64,000 nt of DNA from Candidatus Spongiihabitans sp. (GTDB taxonomy: Bacteria > Pseudomonadota > Gammaproteobacteria > Arenicellales > Poriferihabitantaceae), in NCBI GenBank assembly GCA_965261335.1, contig OZ253450.1:2519492-2583491 (forward strand). The letters are read 5' to 3'. Below are positions 12,196-60,540 of the stretch, piece by piece. How positions within the stretch are numbered: position 1 is the first letter of the stretch; the number at the start of each line of letters is the position of its first letter. The translations under genes and the position numbers were made by a program. Under the pieces are notes generated by a model. The model had not been told where the DNA came from. It saw nothing but the letters and a program-made list of their open reading frames with translations, and did no database searches.

Positions 12196-12272
12196 TGCGG
12201 GGTGGAGCAGTCTGGCAGCTCGTCGGGCTCATAACCCGAAGGTCGTAGGTTCGAATCCTGCCCCCGCTACCA
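12196..12272 (+). tRNA. tRNA-Met, initiator type (anticodon CAT at 12230-12232)
   Basis: Folds by eye as a cloverleaf and aligns almost base for base with E. coli tRNA-fMet. It has three G-C pairs closing the anticodon stem (TCGGG/CCCGA), unpaired position 1:72, and an encoded CCA. Confidence 0.92.
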
Positions 12273-13848
12273 TTTTCCCCCTATGTCCAATTTTTTCCTT
12301 GTAGGTAGAAGCGGATAATAGGGCGGCTAGTTGCCCTTCGACGTGAATCGCTACCGGTTTGCGTTCCCCAGTAGGCGTAATGAACACCCGATCAATAAGC
12401 TCGCGTATTAGGGCAAATGTATTGTCCCGTTCATCAGGATCATTATCGGAATCATTGAGGTTGTCTAGGTGAGCTTGCAGGTCGACTACGATTGTCTGAT
12501 ATTGTGCTACGGTATCCGGATGCACATTGATTGGCTCGTCTTTCTGCTTGAACCTGTCTAATTCATCAATTAAGGCTTGTTGCTCGGCTTCCATAGAATG
12601 TATGCGCGCCATTACCACCGCAGGCGCAGCACTCTCAAGCAACAGATCAACAAGGTGTTCGATGTCGGTGTTGAGTTTTTGCAGTTTAAGTTGCTTGCTC
12701 TTCCTGTTTTTGCGTGTTTCCTGCAACAGCCGTTTTCGTTCATCATTGTAGGCACTGACGTACGCTGCTATTGTGTCCGGACTGCCTAATTGACTTTGTA
12801 GGGCGATGAGGACACGTTGTTCGACGTGTTGGCGCGTGATTGTTCGATTATTATCGCAGTCGCCGCGTTCGCGATGTCCGGCACAACCGATGCGTCCGTG
12901 GGCTATGACCGTATAGGACGCACCACAACAGCCACATTTGATTAAACCACTAAGCAGGTAACGAGGTTTGCGTGATTTCACCGCATGTTGAGTCCCCTTT
13001 TTCGCCTTGAGCGTGGACACTTTCTGAAACAGAACATCGTTCACAATCCTCAATTCGGGTACATCGGAAATCAGCCACTCGCTCTCTGGATTGATTCTTG
13101 ATATGCGTTTGCCCGTTGCTGGGTTTTTGACAAAACGCTGGCGATTCCAGACAATCTGTCCGGCATAAAGACGGTTTTGCAGGATACCGCTTTGGCGACT
13201 GCGACTACCGTTGATGGTTGAAGCGTTCCATTTGCCGCCGCGTGGACCGGGAATCGCATCTTGATTCAGACCAGCGGCAATTTGTCGCGGGGTGCGGTGT
13301 GCCGCATATTCGGTAAAAATACGCAGAACCACCTTTGCTTCACGTTCATTGATGGTTTGTTCGCCGGCTTTTCCGATAACGAGGCTATAGCCATAAGAAC
13401 GCCCACCGGCTTGCCGACCATCTTTGATCACGGCACGCAGTCCGCGCTTCGTTTTTTGTGCTAAGTCAACGAGATAAAGCTCTCCCATCAGACCTTTGAT
13501 GCCAATATGGAGGGTGTCCGCCAAACCATCTTGAACCGAGTGAATCGTAATGTCGTGGAATGCTAATTCCTTACGAATTTGAAGCAGGTCGGCTTGATCT
13601 CTGCTTAATCTGTCCAGTGTTTCACACAGAACGGTATCAAACTTACGATCCTGCGCGGACAGCAACAGGTTGAGCATGGCTGGTCGGTTGATAGTGCTGG
13701 CACCGGAAACGGCATCGTCCTGGAAAGTACCTACGATGGCAAAGCCATGCGATTCAGCATATGTGCTACACAGGTCGATTTGATCGCGGCACGATTTTTC
13801 GTTTTGCAGATCGGATGAAAATCTAGCGTAGATGGCTACCCGCGTCAT
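12229..13848 (-). CDS. Large serine recombinase (putative ICE integrase)
   Basis: N-terminal resolvase catalytic domain (VAIYARFSSDLQ), recombinase domain, Cys-rich zinc ribbon (CGCCGASY...CAGHRERGDCDN), coiled coil. The last 14 codons and the TGA stop lie inside the tRNA gene. Confidence 0.9.
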   Translation of the reverse strand: MTRVAIYARFSSDLQNEKSCRDQIDLCSTYAESHGFAIVGTFQDDAVSGASTINRPAMLNLLLSAQDRKFDTVLCETLDRLSRDQADLLQIRKELAFHDITIHSVQDGLADTLHIGIKGLMGELYLVDLAQKTKRGLRAVIKDGRQAGGRSYGYSLVIGKAGEQTINEREAKVVLRIFTEYAAHRTPRQIAAGLNQDAIPGPRGGKWNASTINGSRSRQSGILQNRLYAGQIVWNRQRFVKNPATGKRISRINPESEWLISDVPELRIVNDVLFQKVSTLKAKKGTQHAVKSRKPRYLLSGLIKCGCCGASYTVIAHGRIGCAGHRERGDCDNNRTITRQHVEQRVLIALQSQLGSPDTIAAYVSAYNDERKRLLQETRKNRKSKQLKLQKLNTDIEHLVDLLLESAAPAVVMARIHSMEAEQQALIDELDRFKQKDEPINVHPDTVAQYQTIVVDLQAHLDNLNDSDNDPDERDNTFALIRELIDRVFITPTGERKPVAIHVEGQLAALLSASTYKEKIGHRGKMVAGAGFEPTTFGL

Positions 13849-13979
13849 TTCTTTGGTTTTCGGTCGTGGTCGTCTCGCTCTCGTCGTTCATGGTCTCGTT
13901 TGGCTTGCTGACGTGCCAGTTTGCGCACAAGTTTATGTACGAGTTCCGTTCGTGAAAGTGTAGCACTTTTGTTGTCCAT
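13845..13979 (-). CDS. Small basic protein (44 aa) translationally coupled to the recombinase (candidate directionality factor)
   Basis: Own translation: MDNKSATLSRTELVHKLVRKLARQQAKRDHERRERDDHDRKPKK. Its TGA overlaps the integrase ATG (ATGA). Confidence 0.4.
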   Translation of the reverse strand: MDNKSATLSRTELVHKLVRKLARQQAKRDHERRERDDHDRKPKK

Positions 13980-14124
13980 TAACAGAACCTGAGTCCTTTT
14001 TCGTGGCTTGCCGCCGACCAGATGCGTTTTTATCCTTGAAATCGATAAATAAAACGGTCATTGAGCAAGAGGCAGGCGTAAAGATTGGTGCACTTTTTCG
14101 GGTTCACCGAGATTGGCGGCTCTG

Positions 14125-59480: not shown

Positions 59481-59593
59481 AGGGGCTTGTCGGAAAATGG
59501 CGTTTTTAGCTTGTTGTGAATATTTAAGTCCTTGTTATTAAACATTTTATTTTCTTAAAATTGGACTGATTTTGAATTAACCGACAAGCCCCT
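59481..59593. mobile_element. 113-bp MITE-like element with 13-bp terminal inverted repeats
   Basis: AGGGGCTTGTCGG (59481-59493) ... CCGACAAGCCCCT (59581-59593), AT-rich interior. A second partial copy is at 634-705. Confidence 0.6.
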
Positions 59594-59807
59594 TAGAGGC
59601 GGTGCCGATAGCACCACAAGCCCGATAAGCACGGGTTAAACGCTTGACCTGCCTGATGCCCAGTTTTAGTTGCTGTGTCGCCCGTGCTTGTGTCAGCCGG
59701 CGACCGATGATGGATTGAATAACCGATATGCGGTGGTCAAGTTCTGTTTTGCTCAATGTAATAATCTCCTCTGTCATAACACTCCTGAATAAGTCAAAAG
59801 GGGACAT
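59577..59807 (-). pseudogene. N-terminal HTH fragment of a transposase (IS481/ISNCY-like)
   Basis: LSKTELDHRISVIQSIIGRRLTQARATQQLKLGIRQVKRLTRAYRACGAIG pattern. The frame is terminated by the MITE end. Confidence 0.5.
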
Positions 59808-59829
59808 TACTGCTTTGGGCTAACACGTC

Positions 59830-60540
59830 CGTGTTAGGGTATCTTTCTTTGTAGTTCTCGGATTAGAATATGGGCAATCGTTCGCAATCGTTTCAATGCC
59901 TTTTTAGCGGATGCGCGCTTTTTAACATGGCGGAAGTGGCGAATGCGTAAGCGGCAGTTTTTAACTTCTTTTACGAAGGTTCTGCGTTGTTTGATGCCAT
60001 GTTTTTTCGCCAATTTGTTGAGACGGTTGATAATTTTGATGGCTAGTTTAGAATCAGTCGGATAGGTGATGTTTTTTTCCTGTTTTTCCCTTCTCTACAG
60101 GGGTGTCAATCAAAACAGTGTTTTCATTAGCTTTTTTGCCGTGCAACATCACACTCATCTTAAAAATGAGTTCAAAACCGGCGACACTGATTCTGTTTCT
60201 AAAATGCACCAGTTCGGTTGCATTGCAAGGCACGTTTGGGGTGTAAGGTTGGATAACCGCAGAAGTATTGATAATACGGATTACGCTTGAACTGTAAGAC
60301 CACATTCTCATCGGACAGGTTTTCCAGTTGTTTGAGCATCAGCAACCCGACCATTAAGCGTATTGGTTTTGAGGGTCTGCCGTTATCGTGGCAGTCGTGT
60401 TTGCTAAATGCATCCTCGAAGACCTTCCAGTCGATGACGTTGGCTAATTGGATTAAAGGGTCTCGCTGGTCTAATTGAGAGAACAGCTCGGTGTGAAACA
60501 GATTTTGTTGCCCAGTATTTGGGGTTGAAGGAGTCAGCAT
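59830..60540 (-). pseudogene. Second IS5-superfamily transposase gene, frameshifted and 3'-truncated
   Basis: N-terminal ORF 60199-60540 (DPLIQLANVIDWKVFEDAF...RPSKPIRLMVGLLMLKQLENLSDE) continues in other frames down to about 59830. Confidence 0.65.

Follow-up and report, generated by a model that had tools for sequence, protein, structure and literature searches.

The 64,000-nucleotide stretch of Candidatus Spongiihabitans sp. DNA analysed here (hereafter the window, in whose numbering all positions are given) very probably holds, from 12,196 to ~60,650, a single-copy, chromosomally fixed conjugative element that is in decay and that combines a MOBP relaxase with a type T mating-pair formation system (MPF_T), and we consider this the best explanation of the block as a whole. 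We propose that its native design would have been that of its intact relatives, in which trbC-D-E-J-x-L-F-G-H-I is followed at once by a type IVb pilus (T4bP, or thin pilus) cluster, pilL-N-O-P-Q-R-S-x-V, and that it is apparently being eroded by the activity of insertion sequences (IS) together with small deletions. The architecture itself is not new, as a P-type channel with an accessory T4bP is already known and is common on plasmids. What the element documents is a diverged environmental clade, with a Trb set in Ti order and an appended T4bP, that exists both as a plasmid and as an integrated copy and is missing from plasmid databases. It also shows, as a clean natural case, how an element is inactivated step by step in a host-associated genome flooded with IS copies, with lesions that can be dated relative to sister populations.

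The block was delimited by an open reading frame (ORF) listing, a tRNA scan and profile searches, and it lies between a tRNA-Met gene and moaC (60795). Housekeeping genes (mfd, ispD/F and a HIT protein gene) lie to its left, unique chromosome restarts at ~60,645, and housekeeping content resumes with moaC. The first-pass annotation, made from the sequence alone, had described a switch to mobile content between the tRNA and a region of IS debris, and the tRNA-Met, recombinase, primase-helicase, repressor and cargo are all indeed there (Table 1); nearly all items of that annotation sit where it had placed them. The element and its chromosomal flank co-occur in the same five runs (X1-X5, the assembled contigs of independent runs), where element depth equals flank depth, as for a single copy, and where depth and the pattern of single nucleotide polymorphisms are even over both halves of the element in all runs. 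The single-copy depth, the gene content and the lesions described below agree with the original description of one decaying conjugative element in the chromosome. The host itself is a sponge-associated gammaproteobacterium, and its MoeA, 76% identical to that of Ca. Spongiihabitans, places it near that organism.

The MPF_T core is represented by TrbL, VirB8/TrbF, CagX/TrbG and TrbI (Pfam matches), and the TrbJ_Ti and TrbB_P models are matched above their cut-offs. In RP4 the trb genes run B-C-D-E-F-G-H-I-J-K-L. The order in the window is E'-J-x-L-F-G-H-I, with trbB elsewhere, and the IncP order first assigned to it does not hold, since E-J-L-F-G-H-I is the order of Ti and Tn4371 and TrbJ passes the TrbJ_Ti model. 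The complete arrangement, trbB-C-D-E-J-(K)-L-F-G-(H)-I, is that of Ti, Tn4371 and ICEMlSym (PMC2789088). Exact-sequence look-ups with TrbJ of the window returned no match.

The lesions in this set begin at its upstream end. Tblastn searches with the proteins of three metagenomic relatives (L017, L021 and L022; all L-numbers denote such relatives) found no homologue of TrbC, TrbD or RepA in the window, which bears out the reported loss of trbC and trbD. Of the 824-aa TrbE reference (L021, 82% identical), trbE retains residues 124-378 and 642-814. Codons 1-123 are replaced by the right end of the IS5-A copy, and an internal deletion at 38691/38692 has taken 263 codons, including the Walker A motif, and left the two parts out of frame; as had been noticed, neither fragment carries a Walker A. 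The 136-aa ORF at the TrbK position is a chimera that ends in a copy of the TrbJ C-terminus, created by a 425-bp segment lying between 75-nt direct repeats of the trbJ 3' end (39880-40360). TrbL is 351 aa long versus 413-442 aa in relatives, and the X4 and X5 contigs carry ~164-183 extra nt in the Gly/Ala-rich 3' part of trbL (window 41290-41437). The opposite-strand cassette of small genes and ParDE that follows is absent from the intact plasmid relative. trbF starts in one frame (MNNNYYLEGKAAYSTILEVSAAT) and runs on in another, and in a third to half of the X1 and X4 populations a deletion between 8-bp AGTTGCCG repeats (43756-45323) affects trbG and trbH. As a separate observation, a minor X2 variant has the end of a multicopy element resembling a miniature inverted-repeat transposable element (…GGGGACATTACTGCTTTGGGCTAACA, also present at 59.8 kb) inserted at 43112, just upstream of trbF.

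Directly after TrbI follow nine genes arranged as in a type IVb pilus operon, PilL?-N-O-P-Q-R-S-x-V. The only clean Pfam matches in this cluster are those of PilQ (T2SSE, 1e-55) and of the prepilin N-termini, and PilR matches T2SSF weakly. A profile built from the six known members of the PilN family matches BfpB, the lipoprotein secretin of the bundle-forming pilus (9u5s), with E=1.6e-10, and the family has an invariant lipobox cysteine (Cys20). The leader of PilS is 18 aa long and is followed by Ile at +1 and by Glu at +5, a type IVb signature. With a BfpB/PilN-class secretin, an assembly ATPase, a platform protein, an A24 peptidase and long-leader prepilins whose +1 residue is not Phe, the cluster is, as judged from these sequence features, a T4bP that can only loosely be called R64-like. 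Gene order and protein classes uphold the earlier description of an R64-like type IVb cluster, and three other points do not: PilN scores 45 bits with the R64-type equivalog TIGR02520 (cut-off 288 bits), neither tblastn with PilN nor megablast with window positions 28-48 kb gave any match in PLSDB (72,556 plasmids in the PilN search), and there is no sign of a shufflon, with no tyrosine recombinase (Rci) and no sfx-like repeat downstream of pilV. Genes for pilI, pilJ, pilK, pilM and pilT were not found. In pilP the frame shifts at 50288/50289, where a 16-mer (GCGCAGTGCCCATATT) occurs once in the window and twice in X4, and the X4 gene is an open 195-aa frame that aligns with its relatives. The frameshifts reported in trbF and pilP are thus both real, and they are unchanged in the independent runs X1-X3.

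The element has also been rearranged by IS copies, which had been counted as four; the interruption by IS stands, and the count becomes three IS5 copies, one IS5-like fragment and one IS3-like remnant. In X4 and X5, position 36658, to the left of IS5-A, is joined without an IS to the reverse complement of position 58202, beside IS5-C, and the 5 bp GTATA form both the left flank of IS5-A and, inverted, the right flank of IS5-C. From this uninverted junction and the shared GTATA it follows that the 20.3-kb block 37927-58207 has been inverted between the two IS5 copies. The collinear order of Tra1, then trb, then pil is derived, and the ancestral trb-pil operon converged on Tra1. The lack of a target duplication at IS5-A was considered as the mark of an adjacent deletion, a reading rejected because the same junction and flanks show inversion; it is at IS5-C, on its truncated end, that the deletion is found. 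In every run the contigs of the IS5 and IS3-like elements reach ~60 to >100 times the single-copy depth, which indicates a massive IS expansion in this ~2.8-Mb symbiont genome and fits an IS-flooded, host-restricted genome.

The lesions could in principle be errors of assembly or sequencing in an element that is intact, and one relative, L007, a 3x-coverage assembly of the same element, does have extra breaks in pilO and pilQ that resemble read errors. Against this, contigs from runs with three host labels and depths of ~400-4,600 agree, with 0 differences, on the junctions of trbE and of the IS5 copies, on the frameshift in trbF and on the deletion in pilP, and the differences in X4 are clean alternative alleles. 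Specifically, X4 has no IS5-B and no 425-bp segment, its pilP is undeleted, and the 3' end of its trbL is longer. As the lesions are reproduced in independently assembled contigs, we regard an artefactual origin as effectively refuted. The decay is recent and ongoing, with sister populations carrying different lesions, and the polymorphic IS insertion, inversion and deletions extend the picture of decay given by the first-pass annotation.

The same populations hold minor alleles in which trbE is undamaged. A 1837-nt unitig in X4 and X5 (depth ~50 vs 270) reads ...SGTHYETSYY and on into IVLIYLPP through the trbE junction with IS5, and the internal trbE deletion is bridged, as in a full-length TrbE, by ~790 nt starting ...ARLETVNSVDAWLGS in unitigs of X2 (1.2%), X4 (10%) and X5 (6%). 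In X2, X4 and X5 the minor haplotype with an uninterrupted trbE is represented by unitigs of 1837, 847 and 635 nt. X5 also contains a diverged minor trbF allele, which suggests that the intact-trbE alleles may derive from a close relative of the element that is more complete and shares its community. On the tentative reading of an undescribed clade set out below, these symbiont populations would also catch the immobilisation of such an element in progress, with an intact-trbE allele still at 1-10%.

The DNA-processing genes have kept their reading frames. The canonical divergent IncP layout first described for Tra1 is confirmed, with the traK-L-M side leftward, a repeat-rich spacer of ~290 bp, and traJ-traI-traG-traF rightward. 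TraI scores 397 bits with the relaxase model NF041893 (cut-off 250 bits) and has Tyr22 and the motif HCDTSYYHMH, which place it in MOBP. [quoted passage not shown]

We now put forward an account of how an intact element would work and how this copy has failed. Judged from what is known of IncI2, R64 and PAPI-1, intact members of the group would transfer the TraI-bound strand through the Trb channel, and a retractile thin pilus would find and hold recipients and stabilise mating pairs in liquid, a role that seems plausible in a filter-feeding host. In the copy described here the channel half is dead, with trbC, trbD and the start of trbE lost beside IS5, the Walker A of trbE gone, and trbF and pilP out of frame. 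The cassette also parts trbL from trbF, IS5-B parts pilR from pilS, and the whole trb-pil block has been inverted. The DNA-processing half is still open, comprising the oriT-like spacer (oriT, origin of transfer), the TraJ-like proteins, TraI, TraG, TraF, TrbB and the recombinase. With no pilin, no VirB3 and a dead VirB4, the copy does not constitute a complete self-transfer module, and from its gene content we infer that it cannot build a mating pore and would at best be mobilisable in trans.

It might nevertheless still be transmitted, as a mobilisable island that obtains its mating-pore functions from a second copy in the genome or from the low-abundance intact-trbE relative. The intact recombinase, oriT-like spacer, relaxase motifs, coupling protein, TraF and TrbB would allow this, and so would the minor intact-trbE alleles, at ~1% in X2 and 6-12% in X4 and X5. 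We consider it improbable, because all five runs with the host flank hold the element at the same place at single-copy depth, no excision joints occur in the contigs, and lesions arise independently in each lineage, even in the repressor and its operator, as neutral decay predicts.

A different history would make the block a composite, in which a phage- or satellite-like island, made up of the serine recombinase, the primase-helicase, the CI-like switch and the cargo, sits at tRNA-Met and the remains of a conjugative plasmid landed beside it, perhaps through IS recombination. None of the relatives was seen to link the recombinase module to tra or trb genes, RepA_C stands just upstream of trbC in the relatives closest to the trb-pil block (one of them a circular contig of 56 kb), and the genome is loaded with IS copies able to fuse replicons. 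Yet there is no internal border, with no second integrase, tRNA fragment or housekeeping gene within 12.2-60.6 kb, no RepA homologue was found in the window, and the uniform depth and polymorphism pattern extend across both halves in all runs. We judge a composite origin unlikely, if less so than continued transmission, and retain a single decaying element. Three points weigh against that preferred reading. The RepA_C gene of the closest relatives, and the circular form of one, mean that the ancestor may be an integrated plasmid. The undeleted trbE alleles show that these communities also harbour, somewhere, a copy that is more complete. Finally, the term integrative and conjugative element (ICE) rests on the position of the recombinase at the tRNA and on gene content: an intact large serine recombinase abuts tRNA-Met, no second copy of the tRNA-Met 3' half and no att-like direct repeat (attR) between the two element ends were found in the window, and no excision joints occur in the assembled contigs of the runs.

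Table 1. Features of the element and its borders, in window coordinates.
Feature	Position	Strand	Evidence or remark
tRNA-Met (CAT), left border	12196..12272	+	ARAGORN
Large serine recombinase, 539 aa (Resolvase, Recombinase, Zn ribbon), open	12229..13848	-	Pfam
Primase-helicase-like protein, 912 aa; Toprim at residues 200-288, Walker A GEPGGGKT at 578	14125..16863	-	Profile and motif
CI/LexA-like repressor (helix-turn-helix, peptidase S24)	18545..19486	+	Profile
Cargo: dCTP-deaminase-like (DCD-like) gene (+), two Fic-domain genes (-)	19808..22456	Mixed	Profile
Prepilin peptidase A24, PilU-like	22855..23448	-	Profile
TrbB, VirB11-class ATPase, intact, Walker A present	23556..24545	-	TIGR02782 (TrbB_P), 346 bits vs 305-bit cut-off
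C5 cytosine DNA methyltransferase (Dcm), cargo cassette	24606..25682	-	Profile
Leftward Tra1: TraK-position ORF, TraL (ParA-like), TraM-position ORF (DUF5338)	26238..27797	-	Profile
Repeat-rich divergent spacer, putative oriT	27798..28086		~21-nt iterons; 19-nt inverted repeat 28002-28041
Rightward Tra1, all open: two NikA/TraJ-like proteins, 297-aa ORF, TraI, TraG, TraF, Ti-like TraB, SLT transglycosylase	28087..35809	+	
HNH endonuclease	35976..36599	-	
IS5 copy A	36659-37926	+	Left edge of inverted block; left flank GTATA
trbE remnant	37927..39224	+	PF03135; 82% identity to full TrbE
TrbJ (Ti type), chimeric ORF, TrbL	39221..41376	+	
Cassette between trbL and trbF: small membrane-protein genes, ParD/ParE	41495..43031	-	
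trbF (VirB8 family)	43123..43768	+	Frameshift after codon 23; ORF from 43202 without N-terminal tail
TrbG, TrbH-like, TrbI	43802..46495	+	
PilL-position gene, PilN lipoprotein secretin, PilO, PilP, PilQ ATPase, PilR platform	46495..53008	+	
IS5 copy B	52994-54270	-	Simple insertion at pilR stop; 5-bp duplication ATAGT; empty site in X4
PilS major prepilin, 141-aa ORF (x), PilV-like minor prepilin	54314..56171	+	
DUF6290 antitoxin and ParE/RelE toxin pair	56493..57058	+	
IS debris: IS3-like remnant (rve, ~57.06-58.14 kb), IS5-C, multicopy repeats, IS5-like fragment 60054-60540	57060..60650		
IS5 copy C	58208-59398	-	Left end truncated

The module at the left end of the element shows further variation. 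The serine recombinase has the N-terminal motif YARFSS, and its ORF stops within the anticodon loop of tRNA-Met (12229-12272), the last 14 codons being antisense tRNA; if the crossover sits in this overlap, excision would alter the C-terminus of the recombinase. In X4 an IS5 end is inserted at 12055-12057, ~140 bp upstream of tRNA-Met, and the window genome is without it. Small ORFs lie between the Toprim protein and the CI/LexA-like repressor, and in most of the X4 population a 520-bp deletion (18290-18809) has removed the operator spacer along with the repressor gene's 5' end; a further two, less common, deletions have nearly the same end points. At the opposite end, the stretch with DUF6290 and ParE (56327-57021) is at about half depth in X1 and X4 and at full depth in X2, and is thus polymorphic, and the X4 contig passes into other sequence after 57040.

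The genes trbB and pilU do lie apart from the rest on the minus strand (22.9-24.5 kb), as had been noted; this position is not clearly a sign of decay, since the placement of trbB varies among relatives. In L040, L046 and L047 the gene comes after traL, on the leftward side, with trbE next in line. The closest TrbB (56%) is that of L039, where the gene comes after pilV, and the circular relative has it at neither of these places. The adjacency of trbB and pilU was at first supposed to be the scar left by removal of a trbC...pilV segment; it may or may not be, because relatives place trbB either after traL or after pilV. The pilS-pilV-x-trbB run of L039 (8138-12364) is followed by an N6-adenine-type DNA methyltransferase gene, and trbB of the window is instead preceded by that of a C5 methyltransferase.

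The intact relatives are what fix the native design. A 56.4-kb circular plasmid contig (L022/L035; ERZ25068511 ctg59685) reads repA-trbC-D-E-(3 small)-J-x-L-F-G-H-I-pilL-N-O-P-Q-R-S-x-x-V, with all genes full length and 40-70% identical to their counterparts in the window. Beyond pilV of this circular relative (L036), only unrelated accessory genes were met along the stretch walked. L005, L006, L023 and L039 all have trbG/H/I followed by pilL-N-O, and in L017 (positions 1-15608; Gammaproteobacteria MAG NORP350, a metagenome-assembled genome) the pil genes are embedded in a tight operon, trbC-D-E-pilL-N-O-P-Q-R-S-x-V-trbJ-L-F-G. The layout of trb followed by pil is therefore native to a clade of intact relatives, and we withdraw the suggestion that it is a product of decay. 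The earlier view as a whole took the architecture for a rare chimera that shows only through the collapse of the element. In its favour, PilN-family relatives form just 6 clusters among 5.8 billion proteins and PLSDB holds no DNA or PilN match. We regard it as refuted, given the same gene order in intact relatives and given that the combination is common and published for IncI2 and pA506.

Indeed, the first-pass annotation had called a P-type mating-pair formation system with a thin pilus unusual, which it is not: the IncI2 plasmids R721 and pHNSHP45 as well as pA506 are typed MOBP/MPF_T and have a T4bP beside or inside virB, and a junction of VirB9-11, coupling protein and PilN-O is present in 504 PLSDB records. 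That annotation had itself stated that finding the layout commonly in databases would remove its novelty, and IncI2, pA506 and the 504 records together do so.

Among known systems, the IncI2 plasmids (R721, TP114, pHNSHP45 and other mcr-1 plasmids) resemble the element in pairing a MOBP relaxase with an accessory protein of NikA type, in having TraL close to the relaxosome genes, and in an MPF_T channel followed directly by a T4bP (pilN-O-P-Q-R-S...V) with an A24 peptidase. Both in the gut and in liquid, mating requires the IncI2 pilus (PMC9045228). The two differ in gene order, which in R721 and pHNSHP45 is VirB4-8-9-10-11-T4CP-PilN-O-P-Q-R-S-T-U-V (T4CP, the coupling protein), hence of virB type with virB11 and the coupling protein between virB10 and pilN. 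At the DNA level they share no detectable similarity; their PilQ proteins are only 23-25% identical, and tblastn with PilN finds no match. IncI2 members also have a PilV shufflon with an Rci recombinase, neither of which was seen in the element, and they are plasmids, not integrated. The plasmid pA506 of Pseudomonas fluorescens A506, and likewise pMP-R124 and pMsip01 of Methylovorus, shares with the element the MOBP/MPF_T type and a complete T4bP; its eleven pil genes lie inside the virB operon, an arrangement of a T4bP within a type IV secretion system operon published in 2012 (PMC3390384). They sit between virB6 and virB8, whereas those of the element follow trbI, and PilQ of pA506 is on a distant branch. 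The embedded layout of L017 resembles that of pA506.

The Trb systems of Ti, Tn4371 and ICEMlSym have the same trb gene order, a TrbJ_Ti and a Ti-like TraB, but they lack a T4bP, use tyrosine integrases and keep trbB beside trbC. Unlike theirs, the Tra1 region of the element is of IncP/IncI2 kind, with a MOBP relaxase and a traK/L/M side. R64 and the other IncI1 plasmids are similar in the pilus cluster, with the order pilL-N-O-P-Q-R-S-(T)-U-V, a lipoprotein secretin, a GspE-type ATPase, a GspF-type platform and long-leader prepilins, but the R64 pilus works with an MPF_I (Dot/Icm-like) channel. Conjugative T4bPs are also carried by ICEs of type G (MPF_G), namely PAPI-1/pKLC102, the ICEclc family and SPI-7, whose mating-pore class is unrelated to MPF_T.

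It is to the MPF_G elements that the pilus genes point. Outside the clade, the pil modules that come nearest (PilQ 54%, PilN 39%) lie downstream of TraC_F_IV/TraU/TraG_N in sponge-associated gammaproteobacterial MAGs, and in the MAGs L001-L004, L008-L010, L012, L013, L019 and L020 (Poriferihabitaceae, Arenicellales and Pseudohongiella) MPF_G-type ICE genes are followed by the same pil family, in which PilL, PilN, PilO and PilP have no Pfam coverage. In a PilQ tree the window groups with L035, L005 and L006, all Trb-linked (support 98/95), this group is sister to the MPF_G-attached modules of the Poriferihabitaceae and Arenicellales MAGs, IncI2 and pA506 sit on a remote long branch, and at least three changes of the MPF label are needed. 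Based on this tree, we propose that MPF_G ICEs from the same habitat were probably the source of the T4bP module, or partners in its exchange, and that IncI2 had no part in this, with the long branches leaving the proposal suggestive. More broadly, we tentatively suggest, as a distinct possibility, that these sequences belong to an undescribed clade of marine and sponge gammaproteobacterial plasmids and integrated elements, in which a Ti-order Trb system took its thin pilus from MPF_G ICEs of the communities it shares, independently of both IncI2 and pA506. The tree suggests that thin-pilus modules move between MPF_G and MPF_T systems, which bears on how the ability to mate in liquid is gained, and if the capture was indeed independent, "mate-finding" modules of the T4bP kind are exchanged among conjugation machines that have no relation to one another.

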